In this document: in pieces, positions 7,997 through 28,248 of the stretch
Layout of the letters: every line of letters starts with the position of its first letter
Numbering within the stretch: position 1 is the stretch's first letter
Source of the DNA: Candidatus Scalinduaceae bacterium
GTDB taxonomy: Bacteria > Planctomycetota > Brocadiia > Brocadiales > Scalinduaceae
Length of the DNA stretch: 64,000 nucleotides
Reading direction: 5' to 3'
NCBI GenBank assembly: GCA_046759445.1
Contig: JBHICG010000002.1
Coordinates: forward strand, 32,001 to 96,000
Translations under genes and position numbers: made by a program
The notes under the pieces: model-generated
Database searches by the model: none
Told to the model about the DNA's origin: nothing
What the model saw: only the letters and a program-made list of their open reading frames with translations

Positions 7997-8349
7997 AACC
8001 TTTCATTTTCTAAGACAGGATTTTTAGTATAATATCAATTCTTGTGTCAACTTTTTAAAGGTTTACGTATAATCATGAACTGTGTTATTCAGCCTTTTGT
8101 CATCCTTGTGGAAGCAGGAATCTATCTTCATTTTGCGACAACTACATTGGGATTCCACTTTCTCTGCATGAACGAATCGTTTGGATAAGCCATATAGTAT
8201 CAATGTCTTAATAAAAATCAATTGATTTGTTATTATTAATTTAGGGTTAGGTATAGCGGTTAGGATTTTTGAAGTAGTATTAAAAAAATTGGTGCGTGAT
8301 AAAATGTATAATATTGTAAAAGGAATATTTTTTGATATAATTACGCATT

Positions 8350-9849
8350 ATGTATATAAGATTTTTATATTCGTCACAATGTAAGATATTTTGTGTTATT
8401 TTTCTGCTTGTATTCAGTCATAGAGTATTTGCAGGAGATGAAGTTGAAAAGCTAAGACGAGAAATCTTAGAACTGGAAAAGATTGCAAACCCATTTATAC
8501 AGATTTTCCAAAAAGTTTCAAGTTTGGTTGAGCCTTCAGTTGTAAGTATCATAGCAGAAGGTGAACCTGGAACTTCTATGAATCCGCACGATAAGTTGCC
8601 TTCTCCCTTTTCTCTCCCCGAGGAGAATGGGAAGAAAAAACCTAAATCTCATAGGCCAAGCTTTGGTTCAGGAATTATAATAAAAAAGACAGGGTATATT
8701 CTTACTAACTTTCATGTTATAGCTGGTTTTGAAAATGGAAGGATAACCGTAACACTACATAATGGGGATAAATATGATGCTGCAGTCATAGGCAAGGATC
8801 CAAATACAGACTTGGCTATTTTAAAGATAGCCGGCAATAGCCTCAGAGAAGTTACTTTTGGAGACCCAAAGAGCGTAAAGGTTGGAGATTGGGTTATTGC
8901 TATTGGTAATCCTTTTGGATATAGACAAGCCGTTTCAGCAGGCATAATAAGTGCTATAGGGAGAACACATATCACACCATTTCCCAAACCTTTTGCGTAT
9001 GAAAATTTTATTCAGACTGACGCAGCAATAAACCCGGGTAATAGTGGCGGTCCGCTTGTAAATCTACGCGGCCAAGTCATCGGTATTAATTCTGCTATTG
9101 CAACACGAACAGGAGGGTTCCAGGGGGTTGGTTTTGCAATCTCTGCGGAAATAGCAAATGAAGTCATCGATGATCTTATCGAAAAAGGAAGAGTAGTAAG
9201 GGGATATTTAGGTGTCGGAATTCAAGATATCAATGATGGACTTGCCTCGTACCTGAATCTAAAAGATAAAAGTGGTGTATTAAGGCAGTTTAGATTAGAT
9301 TCCGATAAGGGAGCCTTCATATCAGAAGTGTGGCAAAATACTCCTGCATCAAGGGGAGGGATTCATCCTGGAGATGTCATTATTGAGTTTGATGGAAAAA
9401 AGATTCTCAATGCTGATGATCTTCAGAAGGCTATAAGGAATTCGGCCGTTTATAGTAAAGTTAAAGTAAAAGTTATACGTAATAAAAAGAAAGAATTACT
9501 GGTAGTCAAAATAGACCAACAGCCAGGGAACATGTCAGGCAAAACGTTCATAACCGTAAAGGAACCCGAACATACAAGCTTTAGCATGGGTTTAAGTGTT
9601 GAAACCCTGACGTCAGAAAAAGCAGAGGCAATGGGTTGTCAAAAAGGAAGAGGAGTACTTGTAAAACACGTTAAGATAGATAGTCCTGCAGAAAGGGTAG
9701 GCATAATGCCTGGTGACTTAATTTTAAAGGTTGGCTCAAAGGATGTTAATTCAACTGATGAATTCCATTCAGTATTAAGAGGATTTATAGAAAAAGGGTT
9801 GTCTGTTTCTATATTTATTAGATCGAAGGGTTTTATTACCTTGAAATAA
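8350..9849 (+). CDS. HtrA/DegP-family serine protease with two PDZ domains
   Basis: Signal peptide; triad TNFHV / TDLAI / GNSGG; IQTDAAINPG; PDZ motifs. Confidence 0.93.
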   Translation: MYIRFLYSSQCKIFCVIFLLVFSHRVFAGDEVEKLRREILELEKIANPFIQIFQKVSSLVEPSVVSIIAEGEPGTSMNPHDKLPSPFSLPEENGKKKPKSHRPSFGSGIIIKKTGYILTNFHVIAGFENGRITVTLHNGDKYDAAVIGKDPNTDLAILKIAGNSLREVTFGDPKSVKVGDWVIAIGNPFGYRQAVSAGIISAIGRTHITPFPKPFAYENFIQTDAAINPGNSGGPLVNLRGQVIGINSAIATRTGGFQGVGFAISAEIANEVIDDLIEKGRVVRGYLGVGIQDINDGLASYLNLKDKSGVLRQFRLDSDKGAFISEVWQNTPASRGGIHPGDVIIEFDGKKILNADDLQKAIRNSAVYSKVKVKVIRNKKKELLVVKIDQQPGNMSGKTFITVKEPEHTSFSMGLSVETLTSEKAEAMGCQKGRGVLVKHVKIDSPAERVGIMPGDLILKVGSKDVNSTDEFHSVLRGFIEKGLSVSIFIRSKGFITLK

Positions 9850-9860
9850 ATTATCCCCGG

Positions 9861-12185
9861 TTAAGAATCATCAACTAAAGAAGCCAAATCCTTTGCTGTA
9901 AAATCACATTCGGGGTAATTTGTGCAACCGTAAAACCACATGCGTTTTTTTCCGCGGCGTTGTACTAGATTGCCATTGCATCCCTCACGAGGGCATTTTC
10001 TGTCCGTAGGTATGGCCCTGGCGTTTTTACACTTTGGATAATTTGAACAACCTAAAAATTTGCCCATCCGACTATTTCGTATAACCATGTAACTTCCACA
10101 TTTTTCGCATTTTTCGTCAGTTTTTTGTACTTTGGTTTCGACAACTTTATCACCATCAAGTGACTTTGTGTTTTTGCATTCTGGATAACCGGAACATGCT
10201 AAGAACTTAACGTTTCTATTGAATTTAATAACCATATCTTTGCCACATTTTTCGCATACTTGCCCCGGTTTTTCATGTTGAATAGGCTTCCCATCTGTAT
10301 CCAGAGCTGTCGTATTCTTGCAATCCGGAAATCCCGAACAGCCAAGAAACTTGCCGATTCTACTCCATCTGATTACCATTGGTTTACCGCATACCTGGCA
10401 AGTATATTTGCTCTCTTCAGGCAATTGTTTTACACTGCTCATCTCTATTTTTGCTTTTTCTAAATCAGAACTGAAGTTTTTGTAAAACTCGTTTAAGACT
10501 TTGAGCCAATCTTCATGAGCTTCTTCAATTTCATCCAACTTGTCTTCCATTTGAGAAGTAAATTCTACGTCGAGAATCATGGGAAAGTGTTTAATAAGCT
10601 TTTCTGTGACTAATATTCCTAGTTCAGTCGGATAAAATAAGCGTTTTGTTTGTTTTACATAGCCACGGTTTTGTATGGTTGAAATAATTGCCGCATATGT
10701 GCTTGGGCGACCAATACCTTTTTTTTCCAATGCTTTTACCAAAGTCGCCTCCGTAAATCTAGGTGGTGGTTGAGTGAAGTGTTGGCTTGGAGTGAGCTTG
10801 ATAAGATTCAAAGCTTGATCTTTTTTTAATGTTGGTATATCTTGATCTTGTTTACTTCTCTCCTGATCCGTATATGTCAAGATCGTATGTCCATCAAATA
10901 TTGTCTCTTTACCTCTTGCCTTAAAAATATATTTTTTTATCTCTCCTTTTTTTGGTTTGGCAGTTATTTCTACTTCTGTAATTGAATACTGAGCTGGTTT
11001 TATCTGACTCGCAACAAATCTATCCCATATTAGTTTGTAAAGCTTATATTGATCGACTGTTAAAAATGATTTTATACTTTCTGGTTTTCGTTCTACATAG
11101 GTGGGCCGAATAGCTTCGTGACCAAGCTGTGCTCCTTTTTTTGATATATGAGTCTTTGGTTTAGGCAGCAGGTATTCTTTGCCATATGTTTGTTCGATTA
11201 CTTCACGACATGAGCTTATGGCTTGTTGAGACACACCAAAGGAATCTGTTCTCATGTAAGTAATTAATCCGATAGATCCTTCATCTCCAAGTACAATACC
11301 TTCGTATAATTGTTGTGCTAGCAGCATGGTTTTTTTTGTACTGAATCTTAATCTTATTGATGCCTGTTGTTGCAACAGACTTGTAGAAAATGGAGGTGGT
11401 GCATTGTTAAGTTTAGTGCGCTTTGAAATGTTTGTTACAATATATTCAGCATCTTTTAATACTTCTTCTATTTTTTTTGAATCTTTTTCATTGGTGATTT
11501 CTTTATTTTTGTCATTAATTTTGGATAACTCAGCGACAAAAACTTCCTTTTTGGGCTTGGAAGTGCTTTTTGCCTCAGCATGTATTGGCATAAGTTCGGC
11601 CACAATTTCCCAATATTCTTGAGATTTGAATTCCGTTATCTCTCTTTCTCTTTCTACTATAAGTCTAACAGCTACAGACTGTACTCTTCCAGCACTTAAA
11701 CGTTTAGCGATTTTTTTCCATAGTAGGGGACTTATTTGATAACCAACAATTCTGTCAAGAATCCTTCGTGTTTGTTGTGCGTTGACTTTGTCCATGTTAA
11801 GGGGACCTGGTTCTTTAAAAGCATTTTGAATTGCATCCTTTGTTATCTCATTGAAGGTAACGCGCCTAATCTTGTTTTCTGGTATGCTCAAAGCTTTGCA
11901 CAAATGCCATGCTATAGCCTCACCTTCTCGGTCAAGGTCAGAAGCCAAATAAACAAGGTCTGCTTTTTTAACTTCTTTGCGCAATTTCCCAACTAACTCT
12001 TTTCTAGAAGGGATTATTCGATATTTAGGGATAAAATTATTTTCGATTTCTATACCAAGACTTTTACTGGGAAGGTCTCTGATATGTCCTATTGAAGAAC
12101 GAACAAAATATGATCGACCTAAGAATTTGTTTATAGTTTTGGCTTTTGCAGGTGATTCTACAATTACCATTGATTTTGTAACCAC
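9861..12185 (-). CDS. topA: DNA topoisomerase I
   Basis: IVESPAKAKTI, DREGEAI, SAGRVQS, ITYMRTDS; C-terminal C4 zinc ribbons. Confidence 0.97.
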   Translation of the reverse strand: MVTKSMVIVESPAKAKTINKFLGRSYFVRSSIGHIRDLPSKSLGIEIENNFIPKYRIIPSRKELVGKLRKEVKKADLVYLASDLDREGEAIAWHLCKALSIPENKIRRVTFNEITKDAIQNAFKEPGPLNMDKVNAQQTRRILDRIVGYQISPLLWKKIAKRLSAGRVQSVAVRLIVEREREITEFKSQEYWEIVAELMPIHAEAKSTSKPKKEVFVAELSKINDKNKEITNEKDSKKIEEVLKDAEYIVTNISKRTKLNNAPPPFSTSLLQQQASIRLRFSTKKTMLLAQQLYEGIVLGDEGSIGLITYMRTDSFGVSQQAISSCREVIEQTYGKEYLLPKPKTHISKKGAQLGHEAIRPTYVERKPESIKSFLTVDQYKLYKLIWDRFVASQIKPAQYSITEVEITAKPKKGEIKKYIFKARGKETIFDGHTILTYTDQERSKQDQDIPTLKKDQALNLIKLTPSQHFTQPPPRFTEATLVKALEKKGIGRPSTYAAIISTIQNRGYVKQTKRLFYPTELGILVTEKLIKHFPMILDVEFTSQMEDKLDEIEEAHEDWLKVLNEFYKNFSSDLEKAKIEMSSVKQLPEESKYTCQVCGKPMVIRWSRIGKFLGCSGFPDCKNTTALDTDGKPIQHEKPGQVCEKCGKDMVIKFNRNVKFLACSGYPECKNTKSLDGDKVVETKVQKTDEKCEKCGSYMVIRNSRMGKFLGCSNYPKCKNARAIPTDRKCPREGCNGNLVQRRGKKRMWFYGCTNYPECDFTAKDLASLVDDS

Positions 12186-15207: not shown

Positions 15208-15283
15208 GGGCAGATAGCTCAGTTGGTAGAGCACGGGACTGAAAATCCCGGTGTGGTCGGTTCGATTCCGACTCTGCCCACCA
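15208..15283 (+). tRNA. tRNA-Phe (GAA)
   Basis: GGGCAGA/TCTGCCC acceptor stem, AGCTCAGTTGGTAGAGC D-arm, CGGGA-CTGAAAA-TCCCG anticodon arm, GTTCGATTC T-loop, encoded CCA. Confidence 0.97.
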
Positions 15284-18157: not shown

Positions 18158-18907
18158 ATGGATAGCAACTCTATCAAGAATCTTTTGGAAAAGGTAAAAA
18201 AAGGCGAGCTTACGATAGAAAAGGCATTACGTTTCTTTAAAGATTTTCCATACAAAGACCTGGAATTTGCCAAGGTTGACATCCACCGAACTATTCGCTG
18301 CGGGTTTCCTGAGGTGATTTTCTGCGGCGGTAAGACGCCTTCTCAAGTCTTTAATATTGCCGACCAAATCGTTAAAAACGGAGCAGATTTGCTGGCAACT
18401 CGTGCTAATAAAGAGATTTATGAGTATATTTCTCAGAAATATAAGACTGCGCGATATAATGACATTGCCAAAACAATAGTCATTCGAAAATCACGCCATA
18501 AGAAAAAGAAGGGTCTAGTCTTAATTATAACTGCTGGGACTTCAGACATTCCTGTAGCTGAAGAAGCAAAAGAGACAGCGGAAATAATGGGAAACAACGT
18601 AAAGGTACTTTATGATGTCGGAGTTGCTGGCATTCATCGCCTGCTTAAAAACAAAAAAGATATTTCAACTGCCAGGGTGATTATTGTTGTTGCTGGTATG
18701 GAAGGAGCGCTTGCCAGTGTGGTTGGTGGAATGGTTGATCGCCCCGTCATTGGCGTACCAACAAGTGTTGGATACGGTACAAGTTTTGGTGGAGTTGCTC
18801 CGCTATTGGCAATGCTGAATAGCTGTGCCGCTAACGTTACCGTCGTTAATATTGACAATGGTTTTGGAGCAGCTTATGTTGCGTCACTGATAAATAGTAC
18901 CAAATAG
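18158..18907 (+). CDS. larB: Nickel pincer cofactor biosynthesis protein LarB
   Basis: GFPEVIF, TAGTSDIPVAEEA, DVGVAGIHRL, AGMEGAL, PTSVGYG, NIDNGFGA. Confidence 0.9.
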   Translation: MDSNSIKNLLEKVKKGELTIEKALRFFKDFPYKDLEFAKVDIHRTIRCGFPEVIFCGGKTPSQVFNIADQIVKNGADLLATRANKEIYEYISQKYKTARYNDIAKTIVIRKSRHKKKKGLVLIITAGTSDIPVAEEAKETAEIMGNNVKVLYDVGVAGIHRLLKNKKDISTARVIIVVAGMEGALASVVGGMVDRPVIGVPTSVGYGTSFGGVAPLLAMLNSCAANVTVVNIDNGFGAAYVASLINSTK

Positions 18908-19042
18908 TGAGCGATTTACATAGATTTTCGATCAACCCATCAGATGTTAGCTGTGCAAAAATTACGCATTATATACTTCAAAACTTATTGATTCTATGGT
19001 ATAAAACATTAACTAGATTAAAAAATATTGAGTGAGTTCATA

Positions 19043-19477
19043 ATGATGGAAAAGATAAGAAATGATAAAATTTTAATACATAGATTATTGTCAGAAGCGC
19101 GTAAGGTTATAAAGTTTTCTTACTCACCATATTCAAATTTTCGTGTAGGTGCAGCAGTCTTAGATGAAAATGGCAAGATTTACACTGGTTGTAATATTGA
19201 GAATGCATCTTATGGGTTGGCAATCTGTGCAGAAAGGGTTGCTGTATTTAATGCTGTATCCCAAGGAGTTGAGAGAATAAAGGCAATTGCTATATATTGT
19301 GATAAACAGGATTTTTGCTCACCATGCGGTGCATGTAGACAGGTTATTTATGAATTCTCTAAGGATGCAATAGTTATTTTGGGAACTAAGGGAACTGAAT
19401 ATACTATAAAGACAATTGCTGAATTGTTGCCTTTGGGGTTTTGTCCCAAAGATTTAAGGCATCAAAATTTAGATTAA
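19043..19477 (+). CDS. cdd: Cytidine deaminase (homotetrameric type)
   Basis: SYSPYSNFRVGAA, GCNIENASYG, CAERVA, SPCGACRQ. Start uncertain (19028 TTG or 19043/19046 ATG). Confidence 0.9.
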   Translation: MMEKIRNDKILIHRLLSEARKVIKFSYSPYSNFRVGAAVLDENGKIYTGCNIENASYGLAICAERVAVFNAVSQGVERIKAIAIYCDKQDFCSPCGACRQVIYEFSKDAIVILGTKGTEYTIKTIAELLPLGFCPKDLRHQNLD

Positions 19478-19482
19478 AGTCT

Positions 19483-20268
19483 ATGGGAAAGGGTACAAAT
19501 AGAAGGAAGGTGCCAGAGGGATTTGGGGAGGAATTCTGGAAAGGATTTTGGCAAACAATTCAAAGTGTTTTAGAGATAATTAAAATTCTCCCCCTATGGC
19601 AACGTTTACTTGGAATACTTGCTGTTTTTGTCTTCATTATTGTTATTGTTTCTATAATAGCAATCGGTGATAGTACTGTTGTTATAGTCGGTCTTATTAT
19701 TTTTGGTCTCCTTATTTTGGTTTTAGGAGTTGCCAGTTATTTTCCAATTATTAGATTTAAAGCAGTTAAGAAGGAAATGACTAAGTTACCTAAAAACACA
19801 ATTTCTGAGCTCTTAAAAGGTATTACTATAAATGTATCAAGAATATTGAACATCCCAAATGAAAAACTTAGATCCAATATATTTATGCTTGATGAAAATG
19901 ATTATTTAAAAATTCCTAATGGACTCCATTATAACATCGGAACTCCTGTTGAACTTTCAATAAAAATTCCACCAGGGTACGGTAGCACAGGGAATGCATT
20001 TCTCAACAAAGAGCCAACTATTGCAATTCTCAAAGAAGACTGGGGCAAGTATATTCTTGATGATGTGGAAATGCAAAAAGTGGATAAGAACTTAGTGTGG
20101 ATTGTCTCAATGCCAATCCCCTCATCAGGGACTCTTGGTGAGATAATTGGAGTGTTGAATGTAGATTGTCTTAATCTAAAAAAGGGAAGGACTGATCTTG
20201 AAAGAATAGTTGATGACATGTGGTACTGGGTAAACTTAATATCACCCTTATTATTAAGAAAGGAGTAA
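19483..20268 (+). CDS. Two-TM membrane protein with C-terminal GAF-like domain
   Basis: Two hydrophobic helices, then GYGSTGNAF...WIVSMPI...IIGVLNVD (GAF-like pattern). ATG lies 5 nt after the cdd stop. Confidence 0.6.
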   Translation: MGKGTNRRKVPEGFGEEFWKGFWQTIQSVLEIIKILPLWQRLLGILAVFVFIIVIVSIIAIGDSTVVIVGLIIFGLLILVLGVASYFPIIRFKAVKKEMTKLPKNTISELLKGITINVSRILNIPNEKLRSNIFMLDENDYLKIPNGLHYNIGTPVELSIKIPPGYGSTGNAFLNKEPTIAILKEDWGKYILDDVEMQKVDKNLVWIVSMPIPSSGTLGEIIGVLNVDCLNLKKGRTDLERIVDDMWYWVNLISPLLLRKE

Positions 20269-20270
20269 CT

Positions 20271-20468
20271 ATGAAGTTGAAGGAAAAAACTCAATCAGAA
20301 CACTCTATAATTTACGTACCAGAGCATTTTGGGAGCAAGTCAATATCGGGGCCGAGCAGTGCTTTCATGGAAACGGTTAAGGAGATAAAAGCCTTAAATT
20401 TTGTTGGAAAATCTACTGATGAATTTATAAATGTATGCAAGCTCAATATTCGCAAAAGCCCGTCTTAG
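20271..20468 (+). CDS. Small hypothetical protein (65 aa)
   Basis: AAGGAG RBS just before ATG 20271, directly after the upstream stop. Confidence 0.55.
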   Translation: MKLKEKTQSEHSIIYVPEHFGSKSISGPSSAFMETVKEIKALNFVGKSTDEFINVCKLNIRKSPS

Positions 20469-20992
20469 GAATTGATATAGATAACGTTATTTCACAAACT
20501 GATACCACAATAAGGAAACTCATACAGCGTCGATATGGTATATCTCTTATGCAAGCTCATATCATACATTTTGATTATCACAAATGTGGAGTAAATAAGG
20601 AACAAGAGAAAGAGATATTTTCTTTATTTAATACCTCTGAATGCGAAAAATTAAAAGTCATCCCAGGTGCTGCAAGAGCCTTATCTATTCTTAGCAACAC
20701 TTATACGGTCATATTAGTAACGAGTAGGAATCCTTCTATAAAACAAAAGACCGAAGAATGGCTGCATACAAAAGGAATCCATTATGACGAACTTATCTTT
20801 AATGATAGAAAGCATGATATAGATGTCAATTTCGACTACTTTATAGAGGATTGTTGGGAATATTCGATAAAGCTGGCTGAAAAAGGCATAAAAGTTATCT
20901 TATACGACTATCCTTGGAACAGAAACAAAGGAACCTCCCCTAATATTTTAAGATTTAAAAATTGGAATGAAATCCTAATTTTTTTAACATAG
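20435..20992 (+). CDS. HAD-family 5'(3')-deoxyribonucleotidase (NT5C/YorS-like)
   Basis: GIDIDNV (DxD), VTSR, KTEEWL, FIEDC, YPWNR. Confidence 0.82.
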   Translation: MQAQYSQKPVLGIDIDNVISQTDTTIRKLIQRRYGISLMQAHIIHFDYHKCGVNKEQEKEIFSLFNTSECEKLKVIPGAARALSILSNTYTVILVTSRNPSIKQKTEEWLHTKGIHYDELIFNDRKHDIDVNFDYFIEDCWEYSIKLAEKGIKVILYDYPWNRNKGTSPNILRFKNWNEILIFLT

Positions 20993-21333
20993 GTACTATT
21001 TCTACGTTGTCCTAACTGTCTTCAAGCCCTGGGGAAAAATGGACAAATCCTATTTTTTTTAACAAATGATTCAAATGCTAAATATTTAAGCATTGCAAAG
21101 ATCGCAGTTACAGTGTTGGTATACCATATTACCCAAAAGAGGATAATAACGATATAAGAAAACATTTATTGTGTCTCTTCCTATAAATTTGATTTAAATC
21201 TATTACAACCCTCATTTCGTTGTATACTTATTTCTTTACAATCCCAATACTACTTACGCCTTGCTTTTTCAGTTTTTTCTTTGTACATTCAAGCACTTTA
21301 ATTAAGGTTATAGAATTTACGTAACGTTAAATA

Positions 21334-22230
21334 ATGTATAAAGTAAAAGACCTACCTAAACTTATTTCCAGAAAAAAAAATTCACACAAAGGAAATTATG
21401 GTCGCGTATTGGTTCTCGCTGGTTCTCCTGGCATGACGGGTGCTGCGTACCTTTGCTCGAAAGCCGCATTGAGGAGCGGTTCAGGTTTGGTTACGTTGGG
21501 TATACCTGAAAGCCTGAATCTCGTAATGGAAACCAAACTGACATGCGTGATGACATATCCACTACCAGAAACGAAGGTGCTCACATTATCTAATAAGGGT
21601 CGAGAAGAAATCCTGGAGCTATGTAATAAACACGATGTTGTAGCATTAGGTCCCGGTCTTTCACAACAAGCAGAGACAAAAAAGCTAGTCCACTGGTTAA
21701 TAAAAACAATAGACCGCACCATTGTGATTGATGCTGATGGGATTAATGCGCTTGTCGGTAATATTAATATATTGTACAAGATAAAAAGAAACGTCATAAT
21801 CACACCACATCCCGGAGAGATGTCACGTTTATTAGACCTTGGTTCGGCAAAGGATGTACAAAAAAAAAGACTTAGCATTGCAACAGAGTTTGTTCAATCA
21901 ATGCATAAAAGATTAGGAAAAGAAAAGGGCATAACCTTAGTCTTAAAAGGGGATAAGACAATAGTTGCAGATTACGAAAAGATATACATAAATCAAACAG
22001 GTAATCCCGGAATGGCAACTGCTGGCACTGGGGACGTCCTTACGGGAATTATCGTATCCCTGATCGGTCAGGGGTTAAGTGAATTTAATGCCTCCCAGCT
22101 TGGCGTGTACGTCCATGGTCTTGCAGGTGATATAGCATCGAAGGAAAAAGGAGAGACATCAATGATTGCTTCTGATATTCTAGACTCTTTACCTGCTGCA
22201 TTTTTAAGATACGAAAAGAGGTGTAGGTAA
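21334..22230 (+). CDS. nnrD: ADP-dependent NAD(P)H-hydrate dehydratase
   Basis: SHKGNYG, GPGL, IDADG, TPHPGEM, ATAGTGDVLTG. Confidence 0.92.
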   Translation: MYKVKDLPKLISRKKNSHKGNYGRVLVLAGSPGMTGAAYLCSKAALRSGSGLVTLGIPESLNLVMETKLTCVMTYPLPETKVLTLSNKGREEILELCNKHDVVALGPGLSQQAETKKLVHWLIKTIDRTIVIDADGINALVGNINILYKIKRNVIITPHPGEMSRLLDLGSAKDVQKKRLSIATEFVQSMHKRLGKEKGITLVLKGDKTIVADYEKIYINQTGNPGMATAGTGDVLTGIIVSLIGQGLSEFNASQLGVYVHGLAGDIASKEKGETSMIASDILDSLPAAFLRYEKRCR

Positions 22231-23758: not shown

Positions 23759-24022
23759 TTATGTTTCCCTTTGAGTTCCTTGTTTAATATGATATGTAAT
23801 TTTGTTTTTATACATAAAAGGGTCTGTAGAAAAGCATAGATGAACATACTTTATCTTATTTCTATATTTTGGTATTTCTTTGTCCAGAAGCTCTAAAGCA
23901 TTGGAAACAATCTTAGGTTGACACCATTCTTTATTACTCATTATTTTTGTATATGCACTTGCATATTCCTTAATGATCTCTAATTTAATCTCGGACCAGA
24001 TTCCTATTTGGTCAAGTTTCAT
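23759..24022 (-). pseudogene. Chimeric remnant: TcmP-like N-terminus joined to a radical-SAM-like internal fragment
   Basis: DQIGIWSEIKLEIIKEYASAY resembles three-Cys-motif partner protein N-termini. PKIVSNALELLDKEI...VHLCFSTDPF resembles SPL-like radical SAM proteins. Far too short for either. Confidence 0.5.
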
Positions 24023-24148: not shown

Positions 24149-25750
24149 CTAAATCATCAAGCTATTGTAATACTTTTTTCTGTATTTCTGAAGAATAAAG
24201 CTATCCTTGCATGCTGAGCAGTTCTTTTGTGGAAGGGGTGAAAATTTTATCCAATGGTTGGGTCTAGAAAAGAGGTCATGATCTATGTAAGTGACATCTC
24301 CCTTTAGCGCTCTATCAGGAAAGATGCGTTCTTTAAGAATTTCTCCTCCAATGAGTATTCCGGGAAGAACCGCTGCAAAAGGTATTGGAACTATCAAAGA
24401 AGCCTGTCCCTCAAAACTCATTTGGCCGCAATGTAAAGATACCCAATCTGTAAAACGTTCTCCTAAAGATGGTAATGGAAATCCTAACCTACATTGGACT
24501 TCTTGCATTTGAGATATATGCCAGTCCTTAAAATATCCGTTATTATTACGCAATGTTTTTACTTCTTCGTATGGGAGTCCTATGAAATTTGCTAAATCTC
24601 TGTCTGGATCCTGCTTATTGTTATTTTGCAAGCAAACATGACAAGCAGTTAGACCCATTTCTACCCTTTTTACATAGAACCCTCTTTCTGCCACACCAGC
24701 ATCAAATATAATTCTAGGAAGGTCCCACTGAATTGCTTGTCGAGTTTCTAGGTTGTCAACGGTTGAAATAAGTAAATCGAAAGAATCGTACTTAGTGATC
24801 TTTGAGAACTCTAAATAAGTCTTTTTATAAGCATCAATTTCAAGGTTCGGAAATTGATCAAATAGTTTTCGTATTAGGTGGACTTTTGGCACTTTTTCCT
24901 TTGCATCTTTTCTGATGGCATATATATAACGATTAAGATTTGACAAGGTCACTTCATCTGGGTCTACCAAAACTACTTTACCTTGTAACTCAGGCAGACA
25001 TACAAGGCAATATAGACAAGCACCCCCTCCAGCGCCAACTCCAACTGTAAATACTTGCCCGAGATCAATAGTTTTAGGTAAAGTAGGGTTATCAGCATTT
25101 AACTTAATTTGTTCGTACGAAAAGAGAGAAAAGTGTATTTCGTCTTCAAGTAAATTCATTCTGGGTAGTTCGCTTGATTTAATACCTAAAGTTGTACCTT
25201 TATATTCTAAGACTCTTTTGAATATTTCGCTTACCGCCCAACAAGCAGTTGCCATAGCTCCTATTGGATTGAAGTTCGATGAAAATTCTCTGTCGTCACT
25301 TTTAGCCACTAGATGTACAAACCAACCGTCAGATGAGATTGAGACCATGTTAGGATGCCTTATACCTGTTTTTCCTATACCTATTAGTACTAATGGCTCA
25401 CAAGATAAAGAAGGCAAAATTCGAAGATTAACCCCGGTGGATATAATAGAAGAAAAATGGGTAACGGCTTCAGTTAGACTAGTATTATTTACTAAAGGGA
25501 TAGGGGTTATAAGTCTAGAATTTCGTTCAAAGATTACATAAATTTCTGTAATAATTGGATGAAGTCGTAATAAAAGGTTAAGAACTGTAAAGAAAGTAAG
25601 TTGACCATTTGGATTAACAGAAGCTTCTTTTCCTAATATTACTATTATAGGCGCAGGCACCTTAGCCCATCTATGAACTTCTTGTGGGGAAGATGGCATG
25701 AGCTGCCTAAGAAGTGTCATCGTCCTTAAGCACTCCTGTTCAGATTTCAT
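24149..25750 (-). CDS. E1-like ubiquitin-activating enzyme (ThiF family, BilD-like)
   Basis: N-terminal inactive-adenylation-like half (NPIGAMATACWAVSEIFK), GVGAGG, DPDEVTLSNLNRY, CHVC and CSAC Zn pairs, candidate catalytic Cys in LHCG. Confidence 0.88.
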   Translation of the reverse strand: MKSEQECLRTMTLLRQLMPSSPQEVHRWAKVPAPIIVILGKEASVNPNGQLTFFTVLNLLLRLHPIITEIYVIFERNSRLITPIPLVNNTSLTEAVTHFSSIISTGVNLRILPSLSCEPLVLIGIGKTGIRHPNMVSISSDGWFVHLVAKSDDREFSSNFNPIGAMATACWAVSEIFKRVLEYKGTTLGIKSSELPRMNLLEDEIHFSLFSYEQIKLNADNPTLPKTIDLGQVFTVGVGAGGGACLYCLVCLPELQGKVVLVDPDEVTLSNLNRYIYAIRKDAKEKVPKVHLIRKLFDQFPNLEIDAYKKTYLEFSKITKYDSFDLLISTVDNLETRQAIQWDLPRIIFDAGVAERGFYVKRVEMGLTACHVCLQNNNKQDPDRDLANFIGLPYEEVKTLRNNNGYFKDWHISQMQEVQCRLGFPLPSLGERFTDWVSLHCGQMSFEGQASLIVPIPFAAVLPGILIGGEILKERIFPDRALKGDVTYIDHDLFSRPNHWIKFSPLPQKNCSACKDSFILQKYRKKYYNSLMI

Positions 25751-26241
25751 ATTCGAATCTCCAAAGGTAAGATAATGAATCTTTTCTGGATTTCCTTAAC
25801 AGGCAATTTTCTCCACCATAGTTTTCCTTGGTACTCGTAAATATAACAATTCTTTGAAAGTTCCATTCCTGAAAGACAATAGTTCCATACAACTATTGAG
25901 ATGTAGCCAATATGAAAACTCACTGGATGCCTTTCATCACCTGTTGAATGTTCTACCTGGTTTGGGTGACTATGAACTTGCGCTAGTAAGGTTAAACTAT
26001 GCCTTGAAAGCTTAGTTACAAGTCTTATCAAATCGTTTTGCTCGAGAGAAACTCCCTCTCCCCACTCAGAACCCCCAACAAACATAGTGGTTATAATAGA
26101 AGATTCTTGTGCTCTTTTACCAGCCCAAAGTACAAGACCTTCTTTACCGATTTCCCCCTTTAGTTTTAAATACGCTTCTGTGCCAGATATTATCTTATGA
26201 GAGATATAGAATTTATTAGCTATGGCGGTAACTAACTTCAT
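25747..26241 (-). CDS. JAB/JAMM metallopeptidase (deubiquitinase, BilC-like)
   Basis: KEGLVLWAG and QVHSHP...HSTGD (E...HxH...S..D); ATGA overlaps on both sides. Confidence 0.87.
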   Translation of the reverse strand: MKLVTAIANKFYISHKIISGTEAYLKLKGEIGKEGLVLWAGKRAQESSIITTMFVGGSEWGEGVSLEQNDLIRLVTKLSRHSLTLLAQVHSHPNQVEHSTGDERHPVSFHIGYISIVVWNYCLSGMELSKNCYIYEYQGKLWWRKLPVKEIQKRFIILPLEIRI

Positions 26242-26666
26242 TGATAAGCTTTGTCCATTTCAACTTGAATATCTTCTAATACCTTAGATAATAAATATTT
26301 CTTTACATTCCAAGTATAGTTAGTATGTAGAATCTCATGAAACTCTCTAATGCCTGGAATACACAACTGTGGTGGATTACGCCCCAGCGCAGCCTGAAAG
26401 GCTGATCCTAGTTTTGGCCAGAATTGCTTCCCTTCTTGCCTAGTCTGTGGATCAACAAAAGTAAAAGCAGGAGCTCTTTGTGGGTATCCCTCGTAATATA
26501 AGCGTGCCATAAATTTTAAGGTTGGACTCTTTTTAGGATACATAAGTACATATACATATAACCCCTCTGGTGTTACCTTCCATCCGTGATAAATAAACAG
26601 GTTATTATGCGCTTGGAGACAATCTAATTGTTCTTGAATTTTGTGACTAATAACTTCACTTTCCAT
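26238..26666 (-). CDS. E2-like ubiquitin-conjugating protein (BilB-like)
   Basis: GYPQRAPAFTFVDP (UBC YP..P motif) and LCIPGIREFHEILH...W (catalytic Cys plus His). Confidence 0.8.
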   Translation of the reverse strand: MESEVISHKIQEQLDCLQAHNNLFIYHGWKVTPEGLYVYVLMYPKKSPTLKFMARLYYEGYPQRAPAFTFVDPQTRQEGKQFWPKLGSAFQAALGRNPPQLCIPGIREFHEILHTNYTWNVKKYLLSKVLEDIQVEMDKAYQ

Positions 26667-26920
26667 TAGATCACCACTGCACCAAGAGGGGTTAGAATAA
26701 GCGTAGCACCGTTTGGCACATTTGATTCGCCGATAGTATCATCCTCAGACAGGGGATTACCATTGAATATTAAACGATAGTTGTCCGCTTGTGACGGATC
26801 GATCCCCAACTTAGCCATAGTAGATACTTTCAAAGCTCGAATAGGTTGGTTCGTATTTACCTCAACTTCTAAAGGCTGTTCTGTTGCCGCAGATTCAATT
26901 GTTAGTATAAGTTTTTCCAT
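26666..26920 (-). CDS. Single-domain ubiquitin-like (beta-grasp) protein (BilA-like)
   Basis: 84 aa; YRLIFNGNPLSEDDTIGESNVPNGATLIL matches the ubiquitin RLIFxGxxL.D..TL..YNI...L.L pattern; AGGAGG RBS. Confidence 0.87.
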   Translation of the reverse strand: MEKLILTIESAATEQPLEVEVNTNQPIRALKVSTMAKLGIDPSQADNYRLIFNGNPLSEDDTIGESNVPNGATLILTPLGAVVI

Positions 26921-26999
26921 TGCATTTCCTCCTATTTAACTTAAATTAAAAATTTTTAATTTTTCATTAATCACGAGATAGAACTTGAAAATATAGTAG

Positions 27000-27096
27000 T
27001 TAATAAATATTTAACCATAGCTTAACGTACCTGTCAAGGGAAAAATTTACTAATAGTTAATTATTTATTGACCTATCTTTCACAACTCGTTATACT
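27000..27096. promoter_or_regulatory. Back-to-back divergent promoters with phased TTAA boxes
   Basis: + strand TTGACC(27068)-N17-TATACT(27091). - strand TTGACA (27037-27032) with a weak -10. TTAA at 27000, 27011 and 27022; TTTA/TTAA at 27046 and 27057. Confidence 0.6.
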
Positions 27097-27124
27097 TTAT
27101 GCAATTAAGGAGACCTAATAAATA

Positions 27125-27472
27125 ATGGAAGACCAACTTGCCAAACGAATTGGACATCGCATAAAGAGCAAAAGAATTGAACGCAATATAAATCAAAACA
27201 AATTGGCTGAGAAGGTAGGTATAAGTCCCGCAGCAATAAACCAGTTTGAGAAAGGAGAAAAGAAACCATCGTCCGATGTACTCACTAGGATCGCAAAAGA
27301 ATTAAGTGTCTCCACTGACAGTCTTCTTACTGAAAAGGGGGATGAAATTTTCGTAGATGAAGAGGTTAAAATAGCTTTTAGAGCATTCAAAAAGTTGGAA
27401 AAAGGGGATAGAGACATAATCGTAAAGAATATACAATTTCTTAAAGAACAAGCGAAAAGAAAAGGAAAATGA
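27125..27472 (+). CDS. XRE-family HTH transcriptional regulator (CapH-like)
   Basis: NQNKLAEKVGISPAAINQFEKGEKKPS HTH_3 pattern; AAGGAG RBS. Confidence 0.9.
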   Translation: MEDQLAKRIGHRIKSKRIERNINQNKLAEKVGISPAAINQFEKGEKKPSSDVLTRIAKELSVSTDSLLTEKGDEIFVDEEVKIAFRAFKKLEKGDRDIIVKNIQFLKEQAKRKGK

Positions 27473-28248
27473 ACATAGCAAAACTTTACGCAAAAGATCT
27501 TCTCATAGAATTTGAGAACTTATCTTTACCTATAAATCCAAAGAAAATTGCTGAGGCTAAAGGGATTATAATTAAAGAAGATGATCTAGAAGGCTTTAGT
27601 GGTATGTTGCTTAAGGTAGGCAAAAGAACTCTTATTAGCGTTAAAAGAAGCATAAGAGAAAGAGGGAAAAAGAGATTCACACTAGCCCATGAACTAGGGC
27701 ATTATCTTTTGACTAAACACTTAACACCTTCAGATATCTCATTTGAATGTACTGATGAAGACATACATCATTTCGGAGAAAAAGATAATAAAGAGTCAGA
27801 CGTGAATGCATTTGCAGCAGAGTTACTTATGCCAGAAGAATTTTTCAGAGAAAGAATTAGGTTAAGCGATCTTACTTATGAACTGATAGATAGTCTTACA
27901 AAAGATTTTGATACCACACTTACGGCTACTGGTAGAAGATTTGTGGAACTTAGTTCTTCATATGCATTAGTTTGTTCTCAAAATTCTAAAATAAAGTGGT
28001 TCCTTAAGGGAGAAGATTTTCCTTATTATTTGTACTCTTCAGGTACCGTAAGCGAATCTTCGGTTGCCATAGATTTTTACTAGAGAAAAAAATTACCTAC
28101 TTGTTTTGAATTGGTACCTGCAAACGCTTGGATTGATGACAACAGAATAGAGGACATGGAAATCTTGGAAATGGCTATACCACTTCCATACTATAATCAG
28201 GTTTTAAGTTTTTTAAGCATTGATAATTCCAATGAAGATAATGACTAG
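27469..28248 (+). pseudogene. ImmA/IrrE-family Zn metallopeptidase (CapP-like), interrupted by an in-frame TAG at 28081-28083
   Basis: RFTLAHELGHY (HExxH), NAFAAELLMP. The frame continues 54 codons past the TAG (RKKLPTCFELVPANAWIDD...EMAIPLPYYNQVLSFL) to TAG 28246-28248. Confidence 0.8.

Follow-up and report, generated by a model that had tools for sequence, protein, structure and literature searches.

How does a genome that already holds a cytidine deaminase come to carry a second one beside an unannotated membrane protein, at a spot where its relatives have hardly any DNA at all, and what might these proteins do together? The locus in question lies in a 64,000-nucleotide (nt) stretch of a Candidatus Scalinduaceae bacterium genome (assembly GCA_046759445.1, contig JBHICG010000002.1, positions 32,001 to 96,000 of the forward strand), which we call the window. 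Positions 19043-20992 of the window encode, on the plus strand and all in the same direction, a cytidine deaminase (gene cdd, protein Cdd), a protein with two transmembrane segments (2TM) and a GAF-fold domain (TM-GAF), a small open reading frame (ORF) of 65 amino acids (aa) and an NT5C-type HAD phosphatase (Table 1). A preliminary description of this DNA, made from the letters alone, had proposed these four genes as an undescribed nucleotide-signalling or defence operon. We find that the four-gene block is a horizontally acquired insertion at a conserved larB/nnrD junction and that its GAF family is repeatedly linked to cdd and HAD genes; a defence role is the reading that we tentatively favour.

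Table 1. Positions in the window of the inserted block and of the features within it.
Feature	Position	Strand	Description
Inserted block	18908..21333	+	2426 bp; larB stop at 18907, nnrD start at 21334
cdd	19043..19477	+	Homotetramer-type cytidine/deoxycytidine deaminase, 144 aa, the genome's second copy
TM-GAF gene	19483..20268	+	261-aa membrane protein, ATG at 19483
Small ORF	20271..20468	+	65-aa protein, ATG at 20271, without known family
NT5C-type HAD	20435..20992	+	185-aa putative 5'(3')-deoxyribonucleotidase homologue
AT-rich non-coding insert tail	20993..21333		GC 0.299

The evidence for the insertion comes from relatives in which the two flanking genes are neighbours. Upstream of the block stands a LarB-like gene (PF00731 AIRC, 59.7 bits) and downstream stands nnrD (PF01256, 178 bits); in both congeners (G001 and G002) the larB stop is followed by the nnrD start after 2 nt, and in two other genera of the same family (G003 and G004) the gap is below about 80 nt, so that larB and nnrD abut in all four relatives examined. 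The wider gene order is kept as well, as tsaD-larB-nnrD-orf128-hydrolase in G002 and as tsaD-larB-nnrD-orf128 in G003, with the four cassette genes missing from each. Two metagenome contigs show the empty junction in relatives as well: one (X5 record 10) joins position 18906 to 21376 via an nnrD-like start, and in the other (X4 record 7) larB continues into TAACCATG... (parts of the stretch that are not covered by contigs of the sets X3 to X6 are no evidence of absence).

The ORF coordinates agree with the layout given in the preliminary description, namely four co-oriented genes between larB and nnrD with spacers of 5 nt (cdd to TM-GAF) and 2 nt (TM-GAF to small ORF) and an overlap, which measures 34 nt, between the small ORF and NT5C. 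Because the spacers are this short and one junction overlaps, the cassette genes are likely to be translationally coupled. The same description called the block visibly AT-rich. This is true against the direct flanks (GC content 0.33 versus 0.41, with 0.415 for tsaD and larB and 0.408 for nnrD) and only modestly so within the window, where the insert stands at 0.331 against an overall 0.364 and 8.8% of 2.4-kb segments are equally low or lower. Terminal repeats, an integrase and a tRNA were looked for at the borders of the insert and none was found: repeats there are short and unconvincing, and the only tRNA lies at 15208. A 20-nt direct repeat, identical at 19 of 20 positions, has one copy at the end of NT5C and the other in the non-coding tail (20970-20989 and 21045-21064, 75 nt apart); the insertion may have left it behind as a scar. 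Since the insertion puts 2.4 kb between larB and nnrD, which at their 2-nt spacing in relatives are probably translationally coupled, nnrD would here need read-through or a new promoter in the tail; promoter and terminator scans gave scores at the level of shuffled sequence, and an Rfam scan of the tail gave no match at E≤0.1.

Now we consider whether the inserted cdd is simply the copy that the lineage inherited, as it would be if relatives carried theirs beside larB. The cassette Cdd is a bona fide member of its family (TIGR01354 at 154.3 bits against a cut-off of 113.65; PF00383 at 78.1 bits against 25), and in a 14-sequence alignment the C-A-E and P-C-G-x-C-R-Q motifs (C62, A63, E64, P94, C95, C98), with the zinc ligands and the catalytic Glu, are invariant, as are the nucleoside-binding residues N51 and E53. 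The genome's other cdd lies on contig C126 and clusters with the single cdd of the congeners G001 and G002 at 99/99 support. Because it is this copy that groups with the congeners, the cassette cdd is not the vertically inherited one, and the objection that the preliminary description had raised against itself falls away; the sister of the cassette gene is the cassette cdd of a Dehalococcoidia metagenome-assembled genome (MAG) (86/87). The vertical cdd (locus L002, on the 1989-bp C126) adjoins a 211-aa ORF and one further ORF, presumably topoisomerase VI subunit B, which it resembles by eye.

The fourth gene is assigned by family as a likely 5'(3')-deoxyribonucleotidase homologue (PF06941 at 60.4 bits against a cut-off of 24.8; phrog_420 at E 2.8e-20). 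Its translation reads D-I-D-N-V at residues 14-18, which is HAD motif I, and contains VTSR, so that the intact catalytic motifs credited beforehand to both enzymes are indeed present.

What distinguishes the block is the 261-aa protein between the enzymes, which matches nothing in Pfam (E≤0.01), NCBIfam, PADLOC or PHROGs. An AlphaFold2 model based on 69 homologues has a mean pLDDT of 88.9, rising to about 98 across residues 105-260, and predicts an amphipathic N-terminal helix, hydrophobic helices at 38-62 and 64-86 and a C-terminal alpha/beta domain (about 105-260). The two helices average 2.49 and 2.51 on the Kyte-Doolittle scale, in keeping with the two membrane segments proposed earlier, and because basic residues flank this hairpin on both sides, the positive-inside rule would place the C-terminal domain in the cytoplasm. 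Comparison of the model with the PDB by Foldseek gives 144 matches at E≤0.001; among the matches listed, the top ones are nearly all GAF domains, including fRMsr 3ksf (E 1.3e-7), yeast YKG9 1f5m, the cAMP-bound Lcd1 GAF 5w10, CyaB2 1ykd and phosphodiesterase GAFs. The top GAF chains reach a probability of 1.00 with TM-scores by target of 0.5-0.65, and the structure entries from the ESM Atlas are GAF_2 clusters. A profile search with the family alignment (A2) against PDB sequences gave weak matches to the transmembrane part only (best E 0.018). At the sequence level the support comes through relatives only: P0029 (35.0 versus 28.6), P0124 (30.8 versus 28.6) and P0148 (22.9 versus 22.4) pass the Pfam GAF cut-offs (PF01590 / PF13185), and among the relatives scanned sub-threshold matches occur in another 16 from a set of 105 and in 5 from a set of 47. 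The GAF domain named in the preliminary description is confirmed, then, as a predicted fold and by way of relatives, and not as a Pfam match of the protein itself.

Conservation within the domain gives a hint of what it may do. Across the 69 family sequences R130, E157, G167, G170, W206 and P211 are invariant, and F134, G165, L204, S209, N226 and D228 are nearly so; since the polar residues R130 and E157 belong to the first group and S209, N226 and D228 to the second, we would expect the domain to hold a ligand site. Modelled as a complex, Cdd and residues 100-261 of TM-GAF, which hold the GAF domain, scored 0.02 against a mark of 0.32 and without controls, a value that speaks neither for nor against a contact.

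To see how this domain is used elsewhere, we turn to the family as a whole. An exhaustive HMMER search of 1.84 billion representatives, clustered at 50% identity, yields 265 proteins when the limit is set at E≤1e-3, of which 121 remain at E≤1e-10 and 10 at E≤1e-30; domain counts refer to the 152 representatives listed, the window's own protein left out. The part common to all members is the GAF-fold domain, and it is the N-terminal module that varies. At least one strongly hydrophobic 19-residue segment, that is, a transmembrane segment, is found in 101 of the 152. Another 16 carry an N-terminal alpha/beta-hydrolase in its place (most matches being sub-threshold and two above the cut-off), and these form one clade (SH-aLRT 100). 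One protein, P0152, has a cytidine deaminase (57.9 bits) fused straight to the GAF domain, without any transmembrane part; the other 151 yielded no second fusion with cdd. The 22 representatives shorter than 200 aa are probably fragments. A search for longer fused forms of the family found none, and alignment A2 run against a 5.8-billion collection returned 9 proteins with no new architecture.

The hydrolase module has a life outside this family. Homologues of it occur on 26-27 plasmid records, none of which covers at least 80% of the query and none of which includes the GAF part. Two of these records were opened. On a Klebsiella plasmid (L045, 4479-8389) the module is the C-terminal half of a PDC-M63A-like protein between Gabija and Olokun genes (GajA, E 1.7e-241; OloA/OloB), and on an Enterobacter plasmid (L046, 531-5705) it is again the C-terminal half, here of the third protein of a set of PDC-M60A/B/C-like genes, the one with a PDC-M60C-like N-terminus. 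These contexts suggest that the alpha/beta-hydrolase is a shuffled effector module.

The distribution of the TM-GAF gene is extremely patchy. It is found in 1 of 41 relatives of the window's host, in 1 of 132 genomes of its class and in 2 of 401 of its phylum; with 401 genomes searched in each case, the phylum of the Dehalococcoidia host has it in 3 and the class in 2, and for the orders of two other hosts the counts are 1 of 36 and 1 of 9. These large genome searches (with the protein or the A2 profile) scored six first-look candidates per genome, so that copies may be missed.

If the family works with the enzymes of the window's block, its members should be found beside such enzymes in other lineages. 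Among eight loci whose context could be read, we find a cdd directly 5' of the family member in four, from two phyla: the window (cdd, TM-GAF, small ORF, NT5C), the Dehalococcoidia MAG (L027: cdd, TM-GAF, small ORF), a GC-rich genome of the window's own phylum (L031, in G429: a cdd overlapping TM-GAF) and another genome of the Dehalococcoidia class (L044, in G1164: a CapP-like M78 peptidase, a PF00702 HAD, cdd and a TM-GAF with a C-terminal extension). A HAD phosphatase adjoins in three, namely the window, L044 (where it belongs to a different HAD family, PF00702) and a metagenome locus, L029, which reads PbeA, PbeC, 123-aa ORF, TM-GAF, 95-aa ORF, NT5C-like HAD and contig end. Altogether, one or the other enzyme adjoins in five of the eight. 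The remaining loci hold a multi-TM protein followed by a 361-aa GAF protein (L028) and a family member on its own (L035 and L036). Genomes have one or two cdd genes each, and for this reason adjacency in four of eight loci of different lineages is far beyond chance.

The NT5C protein and the HAD that follows TM-GAF and the small ORF in L029 share 31% identity (E 1e-22), and NT5C shows no similarity to the L044 HAD. In the family tree, cdd-linked members occur in the window clade, in the clade of L027 and P0004 and, on long branches, as L044, L031 and P0152, with L029 grouping with L031. Because these are several separate parts of the tree, the link with cdd looks family-wide rather than the product of one recent event; the long branches make exact placements unsure. 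Together with the co-occurrence that the preliminary description had named as a check, which is found for cdd, for HAD and in the P0152 fusion, this suggests that the GAF family and cdd probably form a working unit.

A diverged copy of the whole cassette gives some idea of how it evolves. A 2311-nt marine-sediment contig from another study (X5 record 12) carries cdd, the 3' GAF part, the small ORF and NT5C, and in these it shares about 88-94% of its nucleotides with the window, with 25 differences over 421 nt in cdd and 117 differences from 20008 to 20998 (the rest of GAF, the small ORF and NT5C). Where the window has the 532 nt coding for the transmembrane part (19476-20007), the contig has 528 letters, and these fail to align at 85% identity. 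As judged from this alignment, the transmembrane-coding part appears to evolve much faster than its flanks, or to have been exchanged. Set X6 contains the same cassette variant, and because the letters after its cdd translate to the N-terminus of P0003, whose longest recorded contig likewise measures 2311 nt, P0003 appears to be encoded in the four-gene arrangement.

The 65-aa protein is preceded by AAGGAG, 7 nt 5' of its ATG, and has no match in Pfam, NCBIfam, PADLOC or PHROGs. It resembles a 74-aa ORF in L027, located after TM-GAF there (pairwise E 5e-7, with 32% identity in a stretch of 31 residues), and this ORF in turn matches residues 332-363 of the L044 GAF protein, within the C-terminal extension (E 3e-4). 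The window's protein itself shows no similarity to that extension, nor to the L029 small ORF. This transitive resemblance is a weak hint that the small protein could be a detachable tail of the GAF protein. A DNase-treated metatranscriptome library from another study (X3) holds two contigs identical to 20317-20588 and 20839-21042, the first of which spans the junction of the small ORF and NT5C; RNA libraries may retain some DNA, and one contig that covers two genes is no proof of one transcript, so that this gives no more than a weak hint of expression of the cassette.

Are the surroundings of the family those of defence genes? In L029 the genes follow directly on PbeA and PbeC (E about 1e-196), and in L044 a CapP-like peptidase (E 1.1e-26) precedes the operon and a HEPN gene is close by. 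In the window the cassette lies about 3 kb from an operon of BilC, BilD and CEHH with CapH and CapP. This second variable block (24149-28083) contains a BilD-like E1 (ThiF; PADLOC 1.1e-18), a BilC-like gene, a CEHH metal-binding gene, CapH (3.2e-17) and CapP (4.5e-50); it is missing from the syntenic region of G002, and nnrD, orf128 and the hydrolase lie between it and the cassette insert. An 87-aa ORF at 23759-24022 on the minus strand matches, over its first 33 or so residues, the N-terminus of PDC-M41A, a PADLOC candidate whose profile is about 280 long (E 5e-5); probably this ORF is what a truncation has left at the border of that block. PMC13228613 describes CapP and CapH together as regulating many immune operons. 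No defence neighbours were found in L027 or L031, and in L036 no neighbour with a family match was seen.

Drawing these observations together, we read the cassette, tentatively and at rather less than even confidence, as a mobile conflict module in which a pyrimidine ligand, processed by Cdd and the HAD, gates a GAF-2TM effector, and hence as a candidate defence system; the conflict would possibly, and most likely, be with phages. TM-GAF would be a ligand-gated membrane effector whose cytoplasmic GAF domain may bind a pyrimidine nucleoside or nucleotide. Binding would let the transmembrane hairpins assemble and the membrane leak, or, in the sister proteins, switch the hydrolase to a membrane-damaging state. 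The nucleotidase and the extra Cdd would set the level of the ligand, by making or by removing it; the making route would lead from dCMP (deoxycytidine monophosphate), or a modified dCMP, to the deoxynucleoside and on to a deaminated, deoxyuridine-type nucleoside. The 65-aa protein may be an accessory subunit of the GAF protein. The defence reading of the preliminary description is plausible as a proposal, and the route that it had sketched, from dCMP through deoxyuridine to a GAF signal, would be one way in which such a module might work.

This proposal has precedent in architecture. Nucleotide-signalling defence employs membrane effectors such as PycTM of Pycsar, the 2TM effectors of CBASS and the TM-CARF and TM-SAVED types, and in Pycsar and CBASS binding of the signal switches the transmembrane effectors to membrane damage. 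Like these, TM-GAF has an N-terminal transmembrane hairpin and a predicted cytoplasmic small-molecule-binding domain without enzymatic output (the likeness is one of architecture only), and its relatives combine the same sensor domain with a lipase-like hydrolase in place of the hairpin. Unlike these, the cassette has a GAF fold as its sensor rather than a cNMP-binding, SAVED or CARF domain, it has no cyclase or nucleotidyltransferase, its enzymes are degradative (a deaminase and a phosphatase), and no PADLOC model matches it.

A parallel in chemistry is offered by Kongming, whose signal is deoxyinosine triphosphate (dITP): there the immune signal is reported to arise when a base deaminase acts on a deoxynucleotide that stems from infection (bioRxiv 10.1101/2024.12.20.629578; PMC13454610). 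The proposed route is alike in making an immune signal from such a deoxynucleotide by a base deaminase, and unlike in its parts: Kongming uses purine chemistry with an adenosine deaminase (KomA), a HAM1-like/NTP pyrophosphatase-like protein (KomB) and a SIR2 effector (KomC), and the cassette has a cytidine deaminase, a HAD nucleotidase and TM-GAF. A Pfam search of the cassette found no SIR2 or HAM1-type domain, and only the dCMP_cyt_deam and NT5C domains matched. The PADLOC library, of 2023, may predate Kongming, and its null result is no test of that system. One could go further and imagine immune signalling without a dedicated synthase: the nucleotidase and Cdd would turn infection-derived, possibly phage-modified, dCMP into a messenger deoxynucleoside that opens a GAF-gated 2TM pore, or activates the GAF-lipase in sister systems, with the 65-aa protein as a brake. 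In this full form we hold the idea to be unlikely.

Several observations weigh against the defence reading. The context sample is small (the eight loci and one aligned contig), three of those loci (L028, L035 and L036) have the family member without either enzyme, and the evidence for a cdd-GAF fusion is a single protein. None of the four cassette proteins matched PADLOC at E≤0.1, a check that the preliminary description had named and that went against it, and none contains a cyclase, nucleotidyltransferase or CD-NTase domain, so that the operon has no signal synthase. The direct flanks are housekeeping genes in the window, L027 and L031, and no relatives were found on 72,556 plasmids or in 50,697 phage records with the window's protein as query, or on viral contigs with the alignment A1. 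Cdd acts on free nucleosides, and a HAD phosphatase with Cdd is also an ordinary catabolic pair. Finally, in two host genomes (G429 and G430) the cassette cdd is the sole cdd detected, and there it may simply be the salvage enzyme.

Some of these points are just what one would expect of an accessory module for pyrimidine salvage, homeostasis or detoxification, the main rival explanation. Here the HAD and Cdd would serve to break down nucleotides of (deoxy)cytidine or analogues of cytidine that are toxic, the membrane GAF protein would sense the nucleoside and regulate or tether the enzymes or gate nucleoside flux, and no phage conflict would be involved. Both enzymes do come from ordinary salvage families, the same as in housekeeping salvage by cdd and deoxyribonucleotidase, with their catalytic residues intact; a cdd-GAF fusion without an effector-like part fits allosteric control of an enzyme, and the sole cdd of G429 and G430, the housekeeping flanks of three loci and the lack of PADLOC matches fit as well. 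Unlike in housekeeping salvage, however, the cassette cdd of the window comes in addition to the vertical gene that the genome already carries; this second copy is xenologous, belongs to a mobile block and is always beside an unannotated GAF-fold membrane protein. The extremely patchy distribution and the insertion into a conserved operon junction, the 16 of 152 listed representatives in which the same GAF domain is fused to an alpha/beta-hydrolase of lipase-like type, and the neighbouring PbeA/PbeC and CapP-like genes also speak against a salvage role, and the 2TM hairpin is, to our knowledge, no known transporter architecture. On balance we consider a salvage role doubtful, although not to be set aside lightly.

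A second alternative keeps the defence role and dispenses with the messenger. Following the logic of AvcD/DcdV and of dCTP (deoxycytidine triphosphate) deaminases, the HAD and Cdd would, on infection, drain the deoxycytidine pool irreversibly to deoxyuridine, with TM-GAF and the small protein holding the enzymes off until a signal arrives. The enzyme families fit a path from dCMP through deoxycytidine to deoxyuridine, and the cdd-GAF fusion places the enzyme under a GAF domain. Depletion at the level of nucleosides is, however, easily refilled by kinases. The transmembrane hairpin and the hydrolase-GAF relatives are left unexplained, and family members are also found without either enzyme. Deamination of deoxycytidine nucleotides is an established anti-phage strategy (PMC10511110; bioRxiv 10.1101/2021.04.26.441389; PMC13276650), the last of these papers listing dCTP deaminases and dGTPases, and AvcID/DcdV and dCTP-deaminase defence share with the cassette the conversion of deoxycytidine compounds to deoxyuridine compounds. 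The known depletion enzymes are dCMP/dCTP deaminases with nucleotide substrates, either RNA-antitoxin-regulated or standalone, and usually have an N-terminal NTPase or kinase-like domain; the cassette has a 144-aa, single-domain Cdd, a nucleoside-deaminase equivalog (TIGR01354), with a membrane GAF partner. We therefore regard depletion as improbable.

That the genes are a chance or selfish hitch-hiking cluster and no functional unit, or that the GAF protein works alone with the enzymes as passengers, is very improbable: the GAF protein stands alone in three of eight loci and no element boundaries or mobility genes were found, but against this stand the adjacency to cdd in different lineages, the cdd-GAF fusion, the diverged copy that retains all four genes and the translational coupling indicated by 2-5 nt spacers and an overlap.

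If the cassette is the defence system that we tentatively propose, it would add a GAF-fold receptor to the repertoire of bacterial immune sensors and a plain nucleoside (or the removal of one) to the immune messengers, and it would imply that enzymes of the salvage type can be taken over for the making of signals. Should its role be metabolic, it still defines an unannotated GAF-fold family (265 representatives at 50% identity; the query matches no Pfam model) for which cytidine deaminase is a clear and testable functional partner. The cassette measures 2 kb and comes without any pathogen context, so that laboratory strains would suffice for direct tests. A full-text literature search, with subscription journals and supplements outside its reach, returned no paper naming a system of cytidine deaminase, GAF membrane protein and nucleotidase, which agrees with the earlier statement that no named system of this composition was known to its author; the unit is apparently undescribed so far. 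GAF domains do appear in this literature, generically as a nucleotide-binding domain in conflict systems (PMC7159879) and as a GAF-like domain in Septu (PMC11381338).

Some minor features of these loci may be recorded here. The AT-rich tail of the insert contains, at 21022-21165 on the minus strand, a 47-aa, very hydrophobic ORF that nothing indicates to be a gene. A link of the family to EndoIII-like glycosylases was considered, from an HhH-GPD gene downstream in L027 and an Fe-S-looking ORF in L028, and rejected, the two proteins not being similar. In L044, ORFs of 73, 818 and 263 aa downstream of the HAD-cdd-GAF operon (8048-11550) have no Pfam or PADLOC match, and upstream, along with the HEPN gene, lies a weakly nucleoside 2-deoxyribosyltransferase-like ORF (E 0.0015); these surroundings may belong to another, separate system.

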